A stretch of DNA of 64,000 nucleotides from Mobula hypostoma (Eukaryota), in assembly GCF_963921235.1 (NCBI RefSeq), contig NC_086108.1, positions 70,558,001 through 70,622,000 on the forward strand, in the 5' to 3' direction. The translations under genes and the position numbers were made by a program. The notes below the pieces were generated by a model, which was not told the origin of the DNA, did not search any database, and worked only from the letters and a program-made list of their open reading frames with translations. The stretch's first letter is position 1. Each line of letters starts with the position of its first letter. Shown one piece after another: positions 1,172 through 63,542 of the stretch.

Positions 1172-2105
1172 GTAATAATTCTAGTAATCTGAGTAAATAT
1201 GTTTTGAATCATTGTACAATAATTTACGAATGTTTCTATATTAGACTATCATTCTTTGATCACTAAGCTGTAAGGATAATTCTCTACATTGATATGATAC
1301 TGTTTTAGTTACAGTAACTTTGTGCATCATTATCTTTTAACTATGTATTCAAGTATTTATTCTTAAATAATGACGATTCAAGGTAAGTTGTAATGGTCAT
1401 CTTGAATCTAGCAGCGAAACTATTCTAGAAATTGTGTGCCTTTAATTATGATTGATCATGCCATAAAATTGTTTGTACCTTTAGTGCTTTCTTATCAACA
1501 TGGTGTTGAATGTCAGTTAGGAAATTGCCTCAAACATTACAATCTAAATCTTAAAAAAATAGAAAAATTATGAAGTCGAAGGCGATTTGGTGTGACTGTC
1601 AAGTATACACATTAAGTATGATGAGAGTTTTTGCTTCTTCTACTCTTTTAGGTAAAGAATCCCCTTCCCTTCTCACCTTCTGAGAAAAATCTTTTCCTTC
1701 CCTTCTATTTAATCTTGCTACCTGTTAATCTAATTCTACCTCCCTGGTTTTTGAACAATTTGTTAAAGGATATAGGTTGTTTCATACTCATCAGTTGTCT
1801 CCTTGCAGTTAAAGAAAACAACTTCATTGCTGTAATTTTGTTTAACTTAGTAACCAAAACATAAGTTTTGGTGTATTAATTTTTTTTCCCAAATGATTTG
1901 ATCAGTATTTAGAGCATGGTAGCAACAATCAGTGTGTTTACCTTTGTGTAAGATTAATCTATATAATTTATGCAGGTTTGCTACATAAATGTACGGTATC
2001 GGCAAGTGCTGGAAATTTGCGGAGTCTTTACAGCATTTTTTAGGTTTTCTTGTCATTGGTTTTGTATTTTTTTAAATCTTGCATTATCATGTTTTCTTCT
2101 TGAAG

Positions 2106-2191
2106 AGTTTGAACTAATTCACGTTGATGAATTTATGGACGAGTTACTCCACGAAGAGCGAGTTTGTGATATCATTTTGCCCAGGCTTCAG
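2106..2191 (+). CDS. PRPF38A: PRPF38A coding exon 4 (86 nt)
   Basis: gaag|AG...CAG|gtacaa; EFELIHVDEFMDELLHEERVCDIILPRLQ. Confidence 0.97.
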
Positions 2192-2959
2192 GTACAACTG
2201 ATTTTATTCTGTTGCATTGAACAGTATTTAACTGAAGACAAGAAAAGTTTTACTGTTCTCTCCACCCACAAGCCCTTCCATCCAAGTTCACAATCTTAAT
2301 GAAAAGCTACGGATCAGCTGAGATGAGGAATGGACTTGGAATGATCCCAGCAGCCATTTTTGATTCAATAACTTGTCACCATTTTCTCTCACTACTCCCA
2401 CATAAAGGGATGGGGTGTGTGTGCGGCTATTATGGCTGTAAAACACATGGGACCAAGCTCGCCTAAGAGACAGTACTTTCAAGCAAAGGAGAAAACATTT
2501 AGATGTCACATCATTTTACAGATTGGGACCCCTATTACAGTAGTGTGGACTGGAGGGTAGTGAACCATTTTTTTCCCTTAAAACCAAAACTGGTTCTCCT
2601 TGGCCTGATAAATTCAGTTAGAATTTACATTCCATCTTTGATTTCTGCTAAGATGAACTTGGCCTTTTTAACTGGTTCATTTGCTGATTTAATCACTTGC
2701 ATTGTGCTTTTGACCCCATGACAAACTCCACACTCTTGGAACGGATGAAACCATTCTAAAACCCAAGTCTCTTGTTCCATGCTGAGCTGAGTTTCTGACT
2801 TTGTATCCTCTCCCTATCCTGGTATCAAGCTGGTGACAAAATACATATGATTTCTTTCTGTATCTAATACATTACAGGAGAAATTTGATGTTTTTGGTAA
2901 ATGTTCAAAATATGGTCAATCCTCATGTCTTTATTTCAGATCAGTTTTTAAACAGTGTG

Positions 2960-10834: not shown

Positions 10835-12495
10835 TTAGAGTCATAGGGCACTACAGCACAGAAGCAGGCCCTTTGGCCCTTCTAGTCAGTGCCAAACTAT
10901 TATTCTGCCTAGTCCCATCGACCTGTACCCAGACCGTAGTCCTCCATACCTTGTCCATCCCAGTACCTGTCCAAATTTCTCTTAAATGTGGAACCCGCAT
11001 CCACACTTCTGCTGGCAGCTTGTTCCACACTGTCACTACCCTCTTAATTAAGATGTTCTCACCCATGTTTGCCTCAAACTTCTCACCTTTTACCCTTTAC
11101 CCCATGACCTTTGATTGTAGTCTCACCCACCCTAAGTTGAAAAACCCTGCTTACATTTACCCTATCTGTACCTTTATAATTTTATATACCTCTATCAAAT
11201 ATTCCCTCATTCTCCTACACTTCAGTGAATAAAATCCTAACCTATGCCACCTTTCCCTATACTGTAACTCAAGTCCTGGCAACATCCTTGTAAAAGTTCT
11301 CTGCATTCTTTCAATCTTACTGATGTCTTTCCTGTAGGTAGGTGACCAGAACCCGACACAATACTCCAAATTAGGCCTTACCAGCATGTTATGTAACTTC
11401 AGTATAACATCCCAACTCCTGTACTAAGTGCTTTGATATATGAAGACCAATGTGCTAAAAGCTTGCTTTATAATCCTATCTACCTGTGATGCCATTTTCA
11501 AGCATCAGTTTTCCCAGATACCTGTGTTTTACTACTCCGCAGTGCCCTAATGCTCACTGTGTAAGTCCTATCCCGGCTTGGCTGCCATTTTTCAGCCCAT
11601 TTTTCCAGCTGGTCCAGATCCCACTGCAAGCTTTGATAGCCTTTCTCATTGTTCACTACATCCCCAATCTTGGTGTCATACACAAATTTGTTCTGTAATT
11701 TAATCCCATTAATGTGGTCATCCCTTTCTAATTCCTCAATTTCACCATATAGCTCAGTAGACGAGCTCTCAAGTCTGTTCTCTCCAAGTACTGCTGTGAC
11801 ATGACTATTATACTGGAGCAGAATTAGGCCATTCAGCCCATTACGTCTGCTCCACTCTTTAGTCCCGATGAAGGGTTCTGGCCCGAAACGTTGACTGATC
11901 ATTTCCACGGATGCTGCCCGACCTGCTGAGTTCCTCCAGTGTGTTGTGAGTGTTTGCGATCCACCATCCATCAATTCCATCATGGCTGATTTATTATCCC
12001 CCTCAATCCCATTCTCCTCTCTTCGCTCTGTAACCTCTGATGACCTGACAAATCAAGAAACTATCAACCTCCGCTTTAAATATATTCAATGACTTGGCCT
12101 CCACATCTGTCTGTGGTAATGAATTCCACAGATTCAGCATAAAGAAATTCTTCCTCATCTTTGTTCTAAATGGGTGTCCTTTTATTCTAAAGCTGTACAC
12201 TCTGGTCCTAGACTCCACCACATCCTCTCTATCTAGTCCTTTCAATATTTGATATACTTAGCTGAGATTCCACCCCCCCCCCCCCATTCTTCTAAACTCC
12301 AGCAAGTAAAGGCCCAGAGCCATCAAATGCTCCTCATACATTAATGCTTTCATCCCTGGAATCATTCTTGTGAACCTCCTCTGAATCTTCTCTAATGCCA
12401 GCAAATCTTTTTAGATAAGGAGCCCAGAAGTGCTTACAATACTCTGTGCAGTCTGACGAATGCGTTAAAGCCTCAGCGTTACATCCTTGATGTCC
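10835..12495 (-). mobile_element. two CR1 3' fragments with a small Penelope pLTR fragment (about 11858-11960) nested inside
   Basis: ORF remnants MLVRPNLEYCVGFWSPTYRKD, YDTKIG, NLWNSLPQ. Confidence 0.8.
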
Positions 12496-21218: not shown

Positions 21219-22530
21219 TAGCACACACAAAATGTTGGAGGAACTCTGCAGGCCAGGCAGCACCTATGGAAAAGAGTGCAGTCGACTTTTCAGGCTGAGA
21301 CCCTTCAGCAGGACTGGTGGAAAAAAGATGGGTAGAGTTAAAAGGTGGGGCTAAGGGAGGGAGAAACTGGCAGAGGGAGGGGTGAAGTAAAAAGCTGGGA
21401 AGTTGATTTGGTGAAAGAGAGGCAGGGCTGGAGAAGAGGGAACCTAATAGGAGAGCACAGAAGGCCATGGAAGAAAGAAAGGGGGGTGGGGAGCACCAGA
21501 GGGAGCCGATGGGCAGGTAAGGGAGATAATGTGAGAGAGAGAAAATGGCATGAGGAATGGTGAAGGGGGTTGGGGCATTACTGGAAGTTTGAGAAATTGA
21601 TGTTCGTGCCATCAGGTTGAAGGCTACCCAGACAAAATATAATGTGGTGCTCCTCCAACCTGAGTGTGGCCTCATCGCGACAGTAGAGGAGACCATGGAC
21701 TGACATGTCAGAAAAGTAATAGGAAGTAAAAATGGGTGGCCACTGGGAGGTCCCACTTTTTCTGGTGAATGCAGCTTAGGTGCTTGGCGAAGCGGTCTCC
21801 AACTTGATAGCATGAACATTGACTTCTCTAACTTCCGCCCATGCCCCACCTCCCCTTCATACCCCATCCGTTATTTATTTATATACACACATTCATTCAT
21901 TCTTTCTTTCTCTCTCTCTCCTTTTTCTTCCTCTGACTATACCCCTTGCCCATCCTCTGGGTTTCCCCCCCCCCCCCTTTTCCTTCTCCCTGGGCCTCCT
22001 GTCCCATGATCCTCTCATATCCCTTTTGCCAATCACCTGTTCAGCTCTTGGCTCCATCCCTCCCCCTCCTGTCTTCTCCTATCATTTCGGATCTCCCCCT
22101 CCCCCTCCCACTTTCAAATCTCTGACTAGCTCTTCCTTCAGTTAGTCCTGATGAAGGGTCTCGGCCTGAAACGTCGACTGTACCTCTTCCTAGAGGTGCT
22201 GCCTGGCCTGTCGCGTTCAACAGCAACTTTGATGTGTGTTGCTTGAATTTCCAGCATCTGCAGAATTCCTCGTGTTTGCCTCCCTACCTATGTTGAGTCT
22301 CACCAATATCCAGGAGGCCACTCTGGGAGCACCAGACACAGTATATGACCCCAACAGACTCACAGGTGAAATGTCAGCTCACCTGGAAGGACTTTGGGGC
22401 CTTGAGTGGTAGTGAGGGAGGGGGTGTAGGGGCAGGTGTAGCACTTGTTCTGCTTACAAGGATAAGTGCCAGGAGGGAGATCAGTGGGGAGGGACAAATG
22501 GACAAGGGAGTTGCATAGGGAGTAAATAAT
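21219..22530 (-). mobile_element. Penelope-like element 3' part (Cys-rich linker, GIY-YIG endonuclease, pLTR), interrupted by an inverted pLTR at about 21811-22278
   Basis: PPGTYPCKQNKCYTCPY, FTCESVGVIYCVWCSQSGLLDIGET, LGDRFAKHL...LPVATHF; pLTR with a hammerhead-like motif. Confidence 0.85.
22144..22179 (+). ncRNA. minimal type-I hammerhead ribozyme motif in a Penelope pLTR
   Basis: AGUC-CUGAUGA-AGG(GUCUCGG)CCU-GAAA-CGUC^GACU: intact core, stem I AGUC/GACU, palindromic ACGU stem III. Confidence 0.75.
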
Positions 22531-32367: not shown

Positions 32368-33567
32368 CTATGTTTCCGTGGAGGAAAGAAAATGTTACAT
32401 GTTTGTTTTAAGACATAATTGCTTAAAATGAACACTTAGCAACCTATAAAACCTCCCTTCCAAACTGAGGGATATGTCTTTTTTTTCCATATTTCTTGTG
32501 TTTTCATATTTCCTGTTTTAGTCTTGCAAAATGTAAAAGTAATATAATTTACTGCAAGGTATACTTACTTCAACAAACTTAGCAGTTTAAAAACAATGTC
32601 ACAAGTACAAGCAAAATATTAGCATTGTACTAAGGGCTGTGAATTTAAAAACACTGTATAGGGTTTAATTAGATTTTTTACAAGCAACGAACTTGTAAAC
32701 ATTAGTTCCATTTATAATTAAATTTAAAACAGAGTTAACTCAGAATAATTTTACACAAGTGCAAAGTTACAGCTCAATTACCCCAGAAACCTTAATCAAC
32801 CTTCTAAAATTTTTGTTGAAGCAATTCTTGCACAAGTAGTAATATTTGTTCAAATAGTGTTTTTCCTGTTGAGATTGTTTGAAATAAAATTCTAAAGATT
32901 AAAAACAAAAAAGTTTGTGATTGGTCATAGGCTTTTTTAATGGTTTAATTTCTCCTGAATCAGTAGTCTTTTTATAACTTGTATTGTAATTATATGATAT
33001 TCAATATATTGCCTACAGTAATCAATTATACAGGATGTATTTTGCTAGTCAATCATTTCCATATAAGATCCATATGGAAACTGCAATTTTTCCTCAGCTG
33101 CAATTAGTATTTTATTGATTCCTCCCCAAACACAAATTCATGTTAGTGTTCTATTTTGCAGATCCAGACATGACATTAGTATATGTGCACACATTCAGTT
33201 TCCTCATACCAATCAATGGTGATTGATAGATAGGGGTTGGAGCCAGCTAACTTTGGGAAGCAACTGTTGTGCCACAGTGTCTGCCCTAACATAAAGCAAC
33301 ACAGATTGTACATCATACGGTCTTTGCAGTGGGGTGTTCATCAGTGCCACCACAGATCATCAACAATGCAGCAAAGCTCATTTATCATCTTATCTATTAA
33401 TTTTGCTCCTCATTCCTCTGGACTCGCCATCGTGTATTTTGCTCAATCACATTTTATATAATACATTAAAATGTTGAATGAACTATAAATGAAAAATTAA
33501 TCATGTCCATTACAGAGTACATTAGAATAATAGCTACATATTAATATAATGAGAAAAAGAAATATAC

Positions 33568-34075
33568 CTGAAGCTCCCAGAGTGCCATTTCCCACTAGTG
33601 TGCTGCGAGTCATGTGATTGTGCCATTGTCCATCGTGAGGAGTGTTGGAGATACCCATGGGCCTGGCAGCAGGCTGAGCAAAGATGATACTGGGATCATT
33701 GAGGTTCATACTGTTGGGACTAGCTGTGTTGCTGCTAGACCGCATAGGGAAAGGCATGTTGGGGTGACTACCAGATGCAGAATGAAGAACAGCAGGCCAA
33801 GTATTAGCGGGCATTTGCACCTGGTGTTGTGGTCTGTGTGACTGAATGAGGCTCACACTGTGCAGGTTGGAATACTGACCTGGATGATGCTGAGTATATG
33901 GTAACAGGGGCAACTGAACCTGACGGGTTGGTTGAGCAAGTGTCTGTGGAAGTTTATTTTGAGAACCAGCCTGTTGGGTCTGTGGATGGGAAACAGTAGC
34001 TGTCTGAGATGCGTTTGGTGTTAATTGCTGATGCGTAGTTTGAGGAGAGTAAGGAGGCATCTGATGTGGTTCTGA
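33568..34075 (-). CDS. TUT4: TUT4 exon (508 nt), Q/P-rich C-terminal region
   Basis: ttcag|TCA...TCAG|gtata; includes NLNDPSIIFAQPAARPMGISNTPHDGQW, which I recognise from TUT4. Confidence 0.93.
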
Positions 34076-34499
34076 CTGAAAATTAGAAACAAAAAAGCAA
34101 TGAGACAAACTATTGCTCAGGTAAATGGATTTCCAGTTTCTAACATTCTTTCACTAAACCATGTTTTAAGAAGGGAGGAAATAATTTACAAAGTTTTGTG
34201 TGTGGCAGGAACGGTAAAGTGATAATAGTTCCAAAATGATTTATTTGATATACCATTTTCAAATACAAATATGGTCACTACAACTATAACGATTCTCCTT
34301 ATCTGCAACACTTAATTTTCACATAATATTGTTAAATTGAATTCAGTTACAATCAGGGGTTTCTCCAGCGCAGTAAACTTTAAAAAGGATTTAGGGAGAA
34401 TAATGATATATGCCAATTTCAACATTAGGGACTTCAAGGCTGGAGGAAACCCTGTGCAACTACAATACTTTGGGCAACAACCAAAACCAAATGACTTAC

Positions 34500-39680: not shown

Positions 39681-41963
39681 CTAGAAAACAAAGTCCAGCA
39701 TCATTGAATCTTGTTAGGGTTTAAAGTGTCACTGACTTTCTTCATTCATTCATTCATTTTGCCGTCATAGAATTATTAGAAATAATAACAAGCTTAGATT
39801 TAATGGTGAATTTAGATTCAATTTCAAGATCTCAGAATATTCCAACAGTTTTATAACTTATTGTTTCATCTTTTCATATTCCTTTCAGATGGTAATGAAC
39901 AATGTGACACTGCCTATATAATCAGCTGCTTACAGGCAAAATACAATTTTGTTTTATCTGCAGTGAATAGATGGGAAACTAAAAGCTTGTAGGAAACACC
40001 ATAAATTTACTGATTATAATACAAGGCCAAAAATGGAAGATCACAGAATTTCAGGTTGCTTCATTACAATTACGCAAAAAAATTATTATTTAAGAGGAAA
40101 AACATAGAAACAAAGAAAACCTACAGCACAATACAGACCCTTCAGCCCACAAAGTTGTGCCTAACATGTCCCTACCTTAGAAATTACTAGGCTTACCTAT
40201 AGTCCTCTATTTTTCTAAGCTCCAAAAGTCTCTTAAAAGACCCTATCGTATCCACCTCCACCACCATTGCCAGCAACCCATACCACGCACTTATCACTCT
40301 CTGAGTAAAAAACTTACCCCTGACATCTCCTCTGTACCTATCACCAGCACCTTAAACCTGTGTCCTCTTGTGGCAACCATTTCAGCCCTGGGAAAAAGCC
40401 TCTGACTATCCACACGATCAATGCTTCTTATCATTTTATACACCTCTATCAGGTCACCTCTCATCCTCCATTGCTCCAAGGAGAAAAGGCCATGTTCACT
40501 CAACCTGTTCTCATAAGGCACGCTCCCCAATCCAGGCAACATCCTTGTAAATCTCCTCTGCACCCTTTTTATGGCTTCCATATCCTTCCAGTAGTGAGGC
40601 GACCAGAACTGAGCACAGTACTCCAAGTGGGGTCTGACCAGGGTCCTATATAGCTGCAACATTACCTCTCGGCTCCTAAATTCAATTCCACGATCGATGA
40701 AGGCCAATGCACCATACGTCTCTTCTTAACCACAGAGTCAACCTGCGCAGCAGCTTTGAGCGTCCTGTGGACTTGGACCCCAAGATCTCTTTGATTCTCC
40801 ACACTGCCAAGAGTCTTGCCATTAATACTGTATTCTGCCATCATATCTGACCTACCAAAATGAACCACTTCACACTTATCTGGGTTGAAATCCATCTGCC
40901 ACTTCTCAGCCCAGTTTTGCATCCTATCAATGTCCTGCTGTAACCTCTGACAGCCCTCCATACTATCCACAACACCTCCAACTTTGGTGTCATCAGCAAA
41001 CTTACTAACCCATCCCTCCACTTCCTTATCCAGGTCATTTATAAAAATCATTAAGAGTAAGGGTCCCAGAACAGATCCCGAGGCACACCACTGGTCACCG
41101 ACCTCCATGCAGAATATGACCCGTCTACAACCACTCTTTGCCTTCTGTGGGCAAGCCAGTTCTGGATCCACAAAGCAATGTCCCCTTGGATCCCATTCCT
41201 TCTTCCTTTCTCAATAAGCCTTGCATGGGGTACCTTATCAAATGGCTTGCTGAAATCCATATACACTACATCTACTGCTCTACCTTCATCAATGTGTTTA
41301 GTCACATCCTCAAGAAATTCAATCAGGCTCGTAAGGCACAACCTGCCCTTGACAAAGCCATGCTGACCATTCCTAATCATATTATACCTCTCCAAATGTT
41401 CATAAATCCTGCCTCTCAGGATCTTCTCCATCAACTTACCAACCAGTGAGGTAAGACTCATGGTCTATAATTTCCTGCGCTATCTCTACTCCCTTTCCTG
41501 AATAAAGGAACAACATCCGAAACCCTCCAATCCTCCAGAACCTCTCCCGTCCTCATTGATGATGCAAAGATTATCGCCAGAGGCTCAGCAATCTCCTCCC
41601 TTGCCTCCCACAGTAGCCTGGAGCACATCTCATCCGGTCCCAGCAACTTACTAACTTGATGCTTTCCAAAAGCTCCAGCACATCTTCTTTCTTAATATCT
41701 ACATGCTCAAGCTTTTCAGTCTGCTACAAGTCATCACTGCAATCACCAAGATCCTTTTCCATAGTGAATACTGAAGTAAAGTATTCATTAAGTACCTCTG
41801 CTATTTCCTCCGGTTCCATAAATACTTTCCCCCTGTCATACTTGATAGGTCCTATTCTTTCACGTCTTATCCTCTTGTTCTTCACATACTTGTAGAATAG
41901 CTTGGGGTTTTCCTTAATCCTGCCTGCCTAATTTCCTTCTTAAGCTCCTTCCTATTAGCCTTA

Positions 41964-42243
41964 GTTAGAAGAGACATGATGAACTTGGGCGCTGCACCGT
42001 GTGCCTGGACCTGCCCAAGGCCTCCGCCTAAGGAAGGGCCGAGCTCGAAGAAGCGGCTGCAGCTGGAAGCTGACACGGCCTCGGGCTTGAGTTCGGTGGG
42101 GGCAGCAGCAGACGGTGCCAAGGTGGCCAGCGAGAACAAGCTGGAGGAGAGGCTGCACTCAGTGCTGTCACAAGATTGAAGAAGATGGAGGTGCATAGCC
42201 ACCAACCCCAGATTTGGGATGGCACCCACAGACTGACTGACTG
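41964..42243 (+). mobile_element. 5'-truncated RTE-like LINE 3' stub with (GACT)n tail, carrying the ZFTRAF1 fragment
   Basis: 10-bp TSD attagcctta (41954-41963 and 42244-42253); flanks read VRRDMMNLG...QD*RRWRC, like an RTE ORF end; tail gactgactgactg. Confidence 0.7.
41991..42168 (+). pseudogene. ZFTRAF1: circularly permuted fragment of ZFTRAF1/CYHR1 coding sequence
   Basis: GC-rich island; 42031-42168 encodes EGPSSKKRLQLEAD...ENKLEERLHSVL and 41991-42030 encodes [11 protein letters not shown]; the native protein order is KLEERL(Y/H)[18 protein letters not shown]. Confidence 0.85.
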
Positions 42244-44335
42244 ATTAGCCTTATAATCTTCTAGATCTCTAACATTACCTAGTTCTCTGAACCTTTTGTA
42301 AGCTTTTCTTTTCTTCTTGACTAGATTTATTACAACCTTTGTAGACCATGGTTCCTGTATCCTACCATAATTTCCGTCTCATTGGAATGTACCTATGCAG
42401 AACTCCGCACAAATATCCCCTGAACATTTGCCACATTTCTTCCGTACTTTTCCCTGAGAACACCTGTTTCCAATTTAAGCTTCCAATTTCCTACCTGATA
42501 GCCTCAAAATTCTCCTTACTCCAATTAAACGCTTTTCTAACTTGTCTGTTCCTATCTCTCTCCAATGTTACTGTAAAGGAGATAGAATTATGATCACCAT
42601 CTCCAAAATGCTCTCCCACTGAGAGATCTGACACCTGACCAGGGTCATTTCCCAATACCAAATCAAGTACAGCCTCTCCTCTTGTAGGCTTATCTACATA
42701 AATCTAAACCCCTTGCTCTAGAGAGATGCCAATCGATATTTGGGAAATTAAAATCTCCCATCACGACAATTCTGTTATTATTGCATCTTTCCAGGATCTG
42801 TTTCCCTATCTGCTCCTTGATATCCCTGTTACTATTGGGCGGCCTATAAAAAACACCCAGTAAAGTTATTGACCCCTTCCTGTTCCTAACCTCCACCCAC
42901 AGACTCCGTAGACAATCCCTCCATGGTGTCCACCTTTTCTGCAGCCGTGACACTATCTCTGATCAACAGTGCCACGCCCCACCTCTTTTGCTTCCCTCCC
43001 TGTCCTTTCTGAAACATCTAAAACCCGGCACCTGAAGTAACCATTCCCGTCCCTGAGCCATCCAAGTCTCTGTAATGGCCACAATATCATAGCTCCAAGT
43101 ACTGATCCACGCTCTAAGCTCATCGGCTTTGTTCACAACACTCCTTGTGTTAAAATAGATACATCTCAAACCTTCGGTCTGAACACATCCCTTCTCTATC
43201 ACCTGCCTATTCTCCCTCTCGCACTGTCTTCAAACTTTCTCTATTTGTGAGCCAACCTCCTCTTCCCCAGTGTCTTCAGTTCAGTTCCCACACCCCAACA
43301 ATTCTGGTTTAAATTCTCCCCAGTAGCCTTAGCAAACCTCCCTGCCAGGATATTGGTCCCCCTGGGATTCAAGTGCAATCCATCCTTTTTGTTCAGGTCA
43401 CACCTGCCCCAAAAGAGGTCCCAATGATCCAGAAATCTGAATCCCTGCAATTGTACATTTATTGTTCTGTACATTTCCGATGTTGGTCAGACTAACTGCA
43501 AAGGCAGAAAATAGAGGCCAGGCACTCATCCACAGGGAATGGGAAAATTAAGAGACAGATTACTTCAGAGAGCTTTCGTACATCAGCTGGTTTATATTGA
43601 GCTCAAAGACAACTTTCCCTCTTTCTGGATAGCGAATAGTTTGCAACATAGTGGTAAGAAGTCACATTGTGCCAGAAGGAAAATAAAATGTGGCAGATTT
43701 AGCTTGGTCAAACATTCCCAGGTGCTTCAGAGGTCTATTATTAAAACAACTTGGCATCAAGTCATACATTGGAGTAAATGGCCTACAGCTTAATTGAGAC
43801 ATAATGTTTTATGCAGATATGCAGGGACTTGAGTAATGAATGTTAGAGTTCAGGGCCTAATCAGATGAAGGAAGAACAAATAATACCAAAACAAATAAAA
43901 CCGAGAATGTAGAATTAGATGAGTACAGACGTTTTCGAGGGTTTTGGGCTACAGGAAATAGGCATGGTAAGGTCACGGGAGGAAACTGAAAATAAAGTAA
44001 CTAGTGCAACGTAAGTAAGAGTCAAGAGAAAGAAATAATTCAAAAAATTGTCATAGATGAAGTATTATAGGGGAAAGGTAATGAACAGACAGCAAGCACG
44101 CCAATGTTCCAATCTGGTCTACAAAGACAGTGATAATTTGTTACTGAGATTTATAAGGACAAAGCAAAAAAAATCAGCCTGCTTATATGTTCTGTGCAAA
44201 TAATAATTAAAACTGTTTTGTATTAAAGTACCATCTTTTGTCCTTATACAAAACATGAAAATCTGATGTTGTAAAAGAGACATACCAACAGAGGTAGATA
44301 AAGAATAAATGGATAAATGCATTAAAAATCCATAC

Positions 44336-45814: not shown

Positions 45815-46019
45815 GGAACACTCACAACACGCTGAAGGAACTCAGCAGGTCGGGCAGCATCCGTGGAAAAGATGGTCAACGTTTCGGGCCGGAACCCTTC
45901 GTCAGGACCCGGCCCGAAACGTCGACCACCTTTTCCAAGGATGCTGCCCGACCTGCTGAGTTCCTCCAGCGTGTTGTGAGTGTTGTTTTGACCCCAGCAT
46001 CTGCAGATTATTTTGTGTT
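45815..46019. mobile_element. palindromic Penelope pLTR fragment inserted in a CR1
   Basis: 14-bp TSD aacatccttgtaaa (45801-45814 and 46020-46033); 76-bp inverted arms 45817-45892 and 45909-45984. Confidence 0.88.
45874..45909 (-). ncRNA. minimal type-I hammerhead ribozyme motif, sense to the TUT4 pre-mRNA
   Basis: GGUC-CUGACGA-A-GGG(UUCCGG)CCC-GAAA-CGUU^GACC. Confidence 0.7.
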
Positions 46020-60864: not shown

Positions 60865-62171
60865 CTGAATATAATACAAAACATTTACTAACTTGAAGCA
60901 TCTTCTAAACAAAAGCAAGTTTACCCAGCTAAATCTTCAGTGTTATTTAAGCATTAAAATAAAATGAACTTCATGATTCCAAATTCACCAAGTGACTGTC
61001 CCTCCATATTCTGAACTGCCACTGCATTCTACGTGGCTGTTACAATCCAGTGGGATAGACAGCTACCAGCAGCCATGCACTGCCAAATCCTATAGTGCAT
61101 TATAGTCCAATCCAGATCCACTGGACGAACTTTGGCCCAGAGCACTTCAATAGATATAACTACCTAATACTGCCATCATCGAAGTGCACTCTATATTAGC
61201 AACACTCTTTTATGAAAATATGCAAGTGGTATTTACTACACAGAATGTGCAAATAATTTAATTTATTGAGCAGCAAATCTCTAGGCAGTGATCTTCATTT
61301 TGTGGGTTATTACTTAGTTTTAAAGCTGACAAATACTTTGTTAAGAGTTTCTGTCCTCATTTTTCATCTATCACCCATTAGAAACCATACTTTGATCTGT
61401 TTTACAAAGAATTCAAAATACTCAAATTGTCAAAGGATTGGTCAAATGTCTGTATCATATAGATTTACATATAGGAAAATGAAAATTACACAAAAATCAA
61501 TAAAAAATACTACTGCAAGATAAATACTCTGATTTCTTTCAGTGATATTATTGTTTCCTCAACCAATTCACCATGTTTCCAAATAATATTTTAAAACGTC
61601 AATATAAAATTGAAATAATTGTTAAGCAACAAGTTGAGTTTAACACATAGCTGTGTTGAGATCTTAAAAGCTCATTAAGTTGACTTCCCTAACTTTTTCA
61701 GTTTTTCTCCTTACTGGAAATCTTTGAAGTGTGGAGGCTGAAGTATTTGGGCCTCCCTACTCTGTAAATATTCTGTAAGTACAAACTCATCTATTGATTG
61801 TTTCATTACACCAATACCAAAATAAAATGAAACACCAATCCAGAAATAGGGCTGACACAGGCAATTTTCTAAAATTTGCTTTGCTTTCCTGTTCTTCCAC
61901 TGTTAATGGGAAGCGTTTTTATTCTATTTTCTTTAAGACAATTCTTAGTATGAACATTGTCACTTGTGTCAATTGTTCAAAGTATAACTACACTGCTCAT
62001 CTACCCATCGCAGCCACTTCAAAACAGTGTGTTCATCAAATGAAAATTTGAAAAAAAACATAGTTACCAAAATTGAGACGTTACTGTTTCTAGATATGTG
62101 GTTGATTCAAAGATTGTACTTTTAAAAATATGAATCACCATGCATTCATGCAAATCTGAATGATAACTTGC

Positions 62172-62995
62172 CTTTCCATTTGTTAGAATGCTTTTCTCAA
62201 AGACATAATACAGTTCCCCTGTTTCTGACACATTGTCCACATCATCAACAACACTGCAGCTCAAAGTTTCAGTTTCTGTTGTGCAAGTCTGTGAGGTAGT
62301 TGAAATGCAACTGGCAGTGCAATTTGTTCCTTCAGAGCAGTGTACTTCAAGTTTGCAACTATCTTTATGTCTTAGTGACTGCAAATTGGCTGGTGGCATC
62401 ACATTTTCCATACTGTTAGACACAAATCCTGTTCCTTTCAGCTCCGCTTGTTTTGAACAAATCTCTGAAGAATCAGACAACTTCAGAGTTCTAGTGGAAT
62501 GCTCCACTGAATTGCAGCTGAGCAATCTTTCATTGGCATCTGTTGTACAGTTGCCAGTCTCTTGATTTCCCATATCAGATTTTAGCAAATTCACTGCAAT
62601 TCCACCAGTGGGAGATGAAACACTCTTCAATTCTAAATGTTCAAGCTCTGTTTTTACACTTTCAATAGACTCAGCAGCTATGTTAGCAAATACCAGAGTT
62701 CCACAGTTACTTGTCCCGTTTATCATTTCTCCATTGGAGGAATGTTCTTTCATATCTCTCTCTGCAGCAGTTCCCTTTTGTGGCAGACGACAATTCCCTG
62801 GATGTTCTTCCAGTTTTGCAATCTTTTTATTGCAAATTTTCCCTTTTTTCCTTGCATCTGGTTTTACTTTGATCCCATCTTTTACTTGACGAGAAGCAAA
62901 ATATTTATATGCAGTCCTAAATCGCTCCAGAATATACTCATACACCATCTGGCTGTTCAAACTCCGAGCAATATTTCTCTTTAGTGCAAAAGGAT
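62172..62995 (-). CDS. TUT4: TUT4 large exon (824 nt): end of the N-terminal PAP-associated region plus a poorly conserved linker
   Basis: aacag|AT CCT; DPFALKRNIARSLNSQMVYEYILERFRTAYKYFA...ELYYVFEKSILTNGK; ends at a GC donor AAG|gcaagt. Confidence 0.93.
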
Positions 62996-63542
62996 CTGTT
63001 AAAAAAAAACAGTATTAAGTTTCCCAGTATCTTTAAAACTAATTATGTATACTTTTAATGCATACAATGACATTTTTAGCACAGTTCTTAAAAATTTAAG
63101 ATATTATTTGCCTGAATGTTGCCATGAAACAAGGTTAAGTAAAGTTTAACATTTCTGATTTTTTTTTAAAGCAAGTGCAAACAAAAATATGTTCCTTTGA
63201 AAAGCAGAAATTTCAATTCAAATTATTTCACTTCGAAGTGTTATGTTTTCTGCTGGAAAATTAGTATAAGTAATTTACCAATATGACCTCAGTATTTACC
63301 AAAACAGCACAATAAACTCTGAATTCCAACAGAACTATCGAGGAAATATAAATATCAGTCTTTTTTTCACCTCTCATCAGCCTATATATGATTTGTACTG
63401 GATTAGGAACAACTATTATTTTACAGTTAGAAGATGGTACACAGAATTATAAGTAAAATTTGAAAGGCCAATATAGCAGAACTAAAATAAATTAAAAGGA
63501 GAAACACTCAAATTAAGAAAAAGCTAACAGTAATGTGTCTTT

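Follow-up and report, generated by a model that had tools for sequence, protein, structure and literature searches.

How the fragment came to the site in the window

In the window, the 64,000-nt stretch of Mobula hypostoma DNA analysed here (contig NC_086108.1, positions 70,558,001 to 70,622,000, forward strand), two adjoining pieces of the first coding exon of ZFTRAF1/CYHR1 (blocks A and B) stand in swapped order, which raises the question of how an exon fragment came to be rotated so exactly and written into this place. The 178-bp island that they form has a G+C content of 0.65–0.68 in 60-nt intervals starting at 41980–42100, compared with 0.30–0.42 in the flanks, and both its place and the translation of the two blocks were correctly given in an earlier note made from the sequence alone. 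The same note took the island to be the whole insert, while the true insert is 41964–42243 (280 nt), a copy of a dispersed family with 10-nt direct repeats on either side (at 41954 and 42244); excision of the insert together with one copy of the duplication makes the surrounding older LINE read open again across the site. The features of the site are as follows.

41954–41963 (+): target-site duplication, left copy, 10 nt; the longest exact repeat around the island
41964–42243 (+): non-autonomous retroposon copy, 5'-truncated, 280 of about 570 nt; from similarity to dispersed copies
41964–41990 (+): end of the parent LINE 5' UTR, start codon (41976–41978) and 12 nt of ORF, with a 10-nt deletion between the start codon and these 12 nt; from alignment of 13 parent copies against 7 family copies
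41991–42030 (+): block B, ZFTRAF1 exon 1, 40 nt; 39/40 identical to source 1508–1547
42031–42168 (+): block A, ZFTRAF1 exon 1, 138 nt, in the native ZFTRAF1 reading frame; 124/138 identical to source 1370–1507
42169–42229 (+): last codons of the parent LINE ORF, with a CpG-decay stop in this copy at 42177–42179; same sequence at parent 3' ends
42230–42243 (+): (ACTG)n tail, with the parent stop codon inside (42234–42236); tail common to family and parent copies
42244–42253 (+): target-site duplication, right copy
40101–41953 (−): older host LINE, interrupted by the retroposon copy; about 80% identity to other copies in the window, RVT_1 hits and the empty-site reading

The older host LINE, which we take to be CR1-like, resumes to the right of 42253. 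Measured on a full-length copy of 564 nt, the one in the window begins near position 295, and 41964–42243 is, with hardly any room for doubt, an ordinary 5'-truncated retrotransposed copy belonging to a young non-autonomous family.

A dispersed retroposon family

The insert matches 39 other places at 90–93% (40 scored, from 1241 first-look candidates), and a count of other genomic copies, as the earlier note had suggested, gave 443 exact matches to the B–A junction motif, with identical spacing in all 100 of the matches listed and with unrelated flanks wherever copies were fetched. Since 23 of 34 sampled copies match this motif, the copy number is about 650, which is a floor because the sample is biased to well-kept copies. 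Full-length copies measure 564 nt (about 570 nt), their 5' starts vary from position 1 to position 300 and their 3' (ACTG)n tail is fixed, while target-site duplications of at least 7 nt are found in 20 of 33 copies versus 36 of 1056 mismatched flank pairs serving as control. Divergence from the family majority averages 4.9%, falling to 1.9% when CpG sites are set aside, in 30 of the 33 copies (L017, L060 and L063 were dropped by a motif filter), a biased set of which 27 are the best matches to the copy in the window. The family majority differs from the present-day source exon at 3 of 178 sites, none of them A>G. Judged from these sequences the family is evidently young, and a single capture, in the founder, brought in the rotated ZFTRAF1 piece, which retrotransposition then spread.

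At two sites where the family majority departs from the source gene, one in block A and one in block B, the source-gene base is present in some copies (the copy in the window and L019; L009, L010 and L011), which may be older subfamilies or back-mutations. A Pol III SINE with a small-RNA head (tRNA, 5S or 7SL) was rejected, as Rfam gave nothing near a family threshold in two family and four parent loci and the head is an inverted parent 5' UTR. No account of this retroposon family was found in a literature search, with Repbase and Dfam outside its scope. Sequencing runs labelled with eight organism codes, together with two skin metagenomes, share 12–56% of words, and among the runs on record no RNA run was listed as a carrier.

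Parent LINE and reading frame

The family is composed of the parent 5' UTR, start codon and 12 nt of ORF, followed by block B, block A and the parent last codons with the tail. The tail motif without the ZFTRAF1 piece has 194 matches, and of the 30 that were fetched, 27 proved to be parent LINE 3' ends. A near-complete parent copy of about 3.3 kb (L067) shares both of its ends, 2.9 kb apart, with the family, which lacks 2,910 nt of the parent interior by comparison with it. This copy contains one broken ORF with an endonuclease followed by a reverse transcriptase, and is colinear with unnamed proteins of 1008–1025 residues; the anatomy (one ORF, endonuclease then reverse transcriptase, about 3.3 kb) presumably places the parent in the RTE clade. 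The parent ORF opens at the first ATG, which is in frame with the endonuclease domain, and the endonuclease motif follows about 60 codons on; a second family ATG opening straight into this motif was rejected, as two guesses gave 0 matches each. With the parent 5' region as query, 30 of the 42 places found span nearly the whole query. The family 5' part differs from the parent majority at 3 sites in about 190 aligned nt outside the hairpin described below, plus short indels, and stretches of 7 nt and 10 nt present in 13 of 13 aligned parent copies are absent from 7 of 7 family copies. No microhomology was seen at either outer LINE junction. The parent enzyme presumably mobilises the family by recognising the shared 3' tail.

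The family majority has one 86-codon frame running from the parent ATG to the parent stop, in which block A is in its native frame and block B out of it. Among 30 copies, 17 keep the full 86 codons, 2 are broken in other ways, and in 11, the copy in the window among them, the same CpG site brings a premature stop.

Several parent copies show further peculiarities. Inverted 5' segments, as from twin priming, are found in L067, L068 and L070 (G000:C2, about 115.28 Mb), and two distinct extreme 5' ends occur upstream of the shared UTR (L076, L083 and L085 versus L082 and L086). Two short parent copies (L051 and L054) have about 940 nt of upstream flank in common at 98%, either through local duplication or because both carry the same 5' extension. 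Within the 98 nt lost by the family, the parent carries a small stem-loop that we take to resemble the L3 loop of HDV-type ribozymes; it has no Rfam match.

Source exon and exactness of the rotation

The native A-then-B motif has a single match in the 3.48-Gb genome (L036), in a 109-codon first coding exon within a CpG island, whose product matches ZFTRAF1/CYHR1 proteins, those of cartilaginous fishes (sawfish, catshark and skates) ranking first and the best E being 2.4e-21, in agreement with the gene named in the earlier note. ZFTRAF1 exons 2 onward were not found within 40 kb downstream of exon 1, and the gene identity thus rests on exon 1; block A by itself (45 residues) had no match in protein searches, the query being too short and of low complexity. 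On the reverse complement of this locus, block A (1370–1507) and block B (1508–1547) are adjacent on the same strand, so that B natively follows A as the note had it, while in the window B precedes A on the same strand, with zero gap and zero overlap relative to the source exon. The rotation of the 178-nt piece is exact.

Block B ends 4 nt short of the exon-1 donor, which bears out the closeness claimed in the earlier note, although the donor itself, where the note looked for the end of B, is not reached. The piece contains no intron base and lies in sense orientation, and this exonic and sense character does not separate a DNA from an RNA template. The AG that opens block A can alternatively be read as the last two bases of the exon. 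As the sequence stands, the ends share 0 bases and the three junctions (B–A and the two outer ones) are all blunt, whereas a 180-nt version, which entails a 2-nt loss, has three bases common to both ends.

Neither an error of assembly nor a source gene with the B–A order or a tandem copy of its own retains practically any probability, and both are refuted: nothing was found in their support, the source exon is continuous and carries the native A–B order once, without the tandem duplication that the note had named as refuting its reading, and the junction recurs at hundreds of places. Equally negligible is a single circle copied into the genome at the site in the window as one event, as the note had claimed; the exact rotation at this site would suit it, but the piece is a fixed module of a family with hundreds of dispersed copies that hold the same junction inside the same flanks, and the copy in the window, with its own duplication around the larger unit, departs from the family majority at 7.8% of sites, by which this reading is also refuted.

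Fold-back head and A>G changes

The first 55 nt or so of a full-length copy repeat the 5' UTR in inverted orientation, after a 98-nt deletion in that UTR, giving a long hairpin (about 130 nt of the family 5' end) that is present in L018, L019, L021 and L028 and absent from the copy in the window. The fold of one real copy has −93.3 kcal/mol and a z of −8.0, with 0 of 200 shuffles as good. In the hairpin, 15 of 23 parental A's read G in the family majority, whereas T>C is seen at none of 22 sites (the aligner put two of these, both end bases, elsewhere) and none of the 55 A's in the remaining UTR has become G; the parent majority was taken from 11 copies and the family majority from 6 (tip) or 15 (body). 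Fisher tests gave p values of 2e-6 (against T>C) and 1e-10 (against the outside A's), with sites that are not independent. Opposite each changed base the other arm keeps the parental base, giving 15 G–U pairs, from which it follows that the changes postdate the fold-back and arose on the sense strand.

Clustered A>G changes on the sense strand are the mark of A-to-I editing of double-stranded RNA, and the cluster in the hairpin is probably ADAR editing fixed in DNA by reverse transcription. In the founder lineage, 98 nt of the 5' UTR would have been deleted, the RNA would then have folded back into a near-perfect hairpin and been A-to-I edited, and the edits would have been made permanent by reverse transcription, a course of events that we consider quite likely. 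An exact-motif search of the genome for the unedited shortened 5' UTR gave 1 match, a family copy with an edited 3' arm. If the changes are due to ADAR, RNA edits were turned into heritable, amplified DNA, a case of which was not found in a literature search of partial coverage. The editing marks point to an RNA stage of the founder, not to the nature of the ZFTRAF1 template.

Origin of the rotated piece

Capture by reverse-transcriptase jumps across exon-1 RNA that had been cut once is favoured over a DNA circle and a back-spliced circle, with a rough probability of 45%. The exon-1 RNA would have been cut a single time, between A and B, and copying would have begun on a LINE 3' fragment, from which an end-to-end jump took the enzyme onto the fresh 3' end of A. 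From A it would have moved to the 3' end of B, which is the exon end less 4 nt, and from the 5' end of B to a LINE 5' fragment, with about 2.9 kb of LINE interior being replaced. Since both outer junctions come from one cut, ligation of the pieces into a circle and joining by a jump would give an equally exact rotation. The circular template of the earlier note is possible for the founder but not required, since once-cut linear RNA gives the same order. The three blunt junctions require no acceptor and no lost bases in such a chain of jumps, to which the sense orientation, the lack of intron bases and the end 4 nt from the donor also conform, and the other scars of the founder (deletions of 98, 7 and 10 nt, and the fold-back) fit sloppy copying. 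Serial end-to-end jumping is reported in vitro for a modified R2 enzyme (PMC8594491), which is a different enzyme, and tripartite LINE chimeras have been reported (PMC2104539). Against these points, the chain is a rare one, consisting of three ordered jumps or of a ligation and two jumps, and it leaves unexplained that 178 nt falls on the ~180-bp mode of germline DNA circles (PMC10581685). In folds of the source exon the ends are not consistently close, being 12 steps apart in three folds and 58 in the longest, and the captured piece lacks the A>G changes of the hairpin. No intermediate was found, and the order of events and the type of template are what we infer. The searches for intermediates all used exact motifs, by which diverged copies are missed: the intact back-splice junction with two extra bases had 0 matches in the genome, a family copy retaining the 10 nt had 1 match, which is a 2-nt duplication, and the 10-nt deletion without the ZFTRAF1 piece had 3 matches, which by their matched letters are family copies minus part of B.

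Rather unlikely, on the evidence at hand, is an origin from DNA, in which the CpG island of ZFTRAF1 gave rise to a microcircle of nucleosome size. A single cut would have opened it, and a LINE copy in the genome would have taken it up at a double-strand break, losing about 2.9 kb and then becoming the family master. The size of 178–180 bp and the high G+C match the ~180-bp circles of the mouse and human germline (PMC10581685), the source exon is itself a CpG island, and the swapped order on one strand is a published signature of such circles (PMC7188851). The ends of the 180-nt version share three bases, while a blunt 178-bp circle is also allowed, as 40% of circle junctions were without homology in one study (PMC8617514). 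This route nevertheless leaves the sense orientation, the preserved frame and the stop 4 nt from the donor with no intron sequence to chance. A large deletion and a capture must coincide at one break, and the microhomology version requires the 2-nt loss, with 0 matches keeping the two bases. The same three shared bases would equally serve a 180-nt circular RNA, so the junction cannot separate the two. In this still less probable reading, which elaborates the back-splice with a 2-nt loss proposed in the earlier note, the exon-1 donor would have been back-spliced to a cryptic acceptor inside exon 1, a single nick would have opened the circle, and end-to-end copying would have set it between two LINE fragments, with two bases lost at that point or afterwards. 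Block B does end within 2–4 nt of the donor, block A begins with AG, and a 2-nt loss would be in character for a founder that also lost 7 and 10 nt. Adding back 10 nt and 2 nt (12 nt, frame-neutral) moreover brings the LINE start, B, A and the LINE end all into their native frame, for which the chance under random breakpoints is about 1 in 27, a regularity spotted post hoc that we take as a lead, not as proof. The frame argument is weakened in that 13 of the 20 AGs in the source exon would give a whole-codon circle. First exons are without a normal upstream acceptor, and the cryptic one would sit inside such an exon; it reads GAG with 0.47 pyrimidines upstream and ranks 4th of 20 AGs by pyrimidine content, while a stronger CAG (0.73 pyrimidines) 24 nt upstream went unused. 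The intact junction has 0 matches and the short junction is present in 100 of the 100 matches listed, nor was a family copy with the 10 nt matched.

A more elaborate version, which we regard as a long shot, would make the founder a fossil of three RNA-level events, in which a 60-codon first-exon circular RNA was nicked once and captured in frame between the start and stop codons of a LINE, the hairpin was hyper-edited by ADAR and fixed as G, and the kept mini-frame and relaxed hairpin made the element succeed. If this were true, translation would bring the element near the LINE enzyme, and the G–U pairs would hide it from double-stranded-RNA sensors.

Comparison with known elements

The bipartite non-autonomous RTE LINEs, such as Bov-A, RTESINE1/2, WALLSI3 and MAR4_MD (Kojima 2018, PMC5786205), are described as combining the 5' UTR and 3' end of one LINE with loss of the coding interior, and as having a microsatellite tail, target-site duplications and a dependence on the parent enzyme. 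The present family likewise takes its 5' part from a LINE 5' UTR and its 3' part and tail from the same LINE, and bears the marks of target-primed insertion (duplications, variable 5' truncation and a fixed 3' tail). Unlike those elements, which by that description consist of only two LINE ends (PMC5786205), it adds between them the 178-nt rotated exon piece of ZFTRAF1, a fold-back head with A>G changes and an open frame from the parent start to the parent stop; it works like a bipartite element, yet is no plain member of that class.

Non-colinear host exon sequence that multiplied with a retroelement is also known from circRNA-derived pseudogenes, of which 33 circRFWD2 copies are reported in the mouse (Dong et al. 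2016, PMC4897178). In these copies annotated exon ends are joined (exon 6 to exon 2) near LTR sequence, as given in that report, whereas the ZFTRAF1 junction shows the non-colinear order without a donor-to-acceptor junction, lies inside one first exon 4 nt off the donor, and makes exactly one turn within a non-LTR element of hundreds of copies. Transcripts of the family would mimic a back-splice junction in RNA data.

The two gapless same-strand blocks are swapped as in a circle cut once, which is also the pattern described for eccDNA-mediated duplications (Takahashi and Innan 2020, PMC7188851), and the size and G+C-rich origin are nucleosomal, like those of the ~180-bp germline circles (PMC10581685), a fit that is not specific, as exon RNA has the same origin. 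The survey of eccDNA-mediated duplications concerns segmental duplications of >1 kb (PMC7188851), unlike the 178-nt piece, which replaces a LINE interior and spread by retrotransposition. Tripartite template-switch chimeras (Gogvadze et al. 2007, PMC2104539) resemble the family in that several RNA copies are joined directly by a LINE enzyme, with a target-site duplication on either side. They differ in being single insertions of unrelated transcripts, and neither exon rotation nor family amplification is mentioned in the part of that paper drawn on here (PMC2104539).

The site in the window is itself routine, while the exact rotation in a mobile family together with the probable fixed editing is unusual. 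In this family the rotation of a host exon piece, by DNA repair or by a LINE enzyme, and its later spread are cleanly recorded in nature; every junction is readable to the base because the source gene, the parent LINE and hundreds of copies are in one genome. In practical terms, the copies will yield false back-splice calls and false short ZFTRAF1 matches in the Mobula hypostoma genome.

Other features of the window

The window contains a PRP38-family exon (Pfam) at 1967–2299 (+) and, facing it, a TUT4-like exon (hits to solved structures) at 62064–63014 (−); between the two is the insert, which probably sits in a TUT4 intron, and we assume that 33497–34150 (−) may be a later TUT4 exon. A 168-nt stretch at 45817–45984 is 89% identical to its own reverse complement and is probably a small inverted-repeat transposon, with partial copies near 11862–11954 and 21222–21315.
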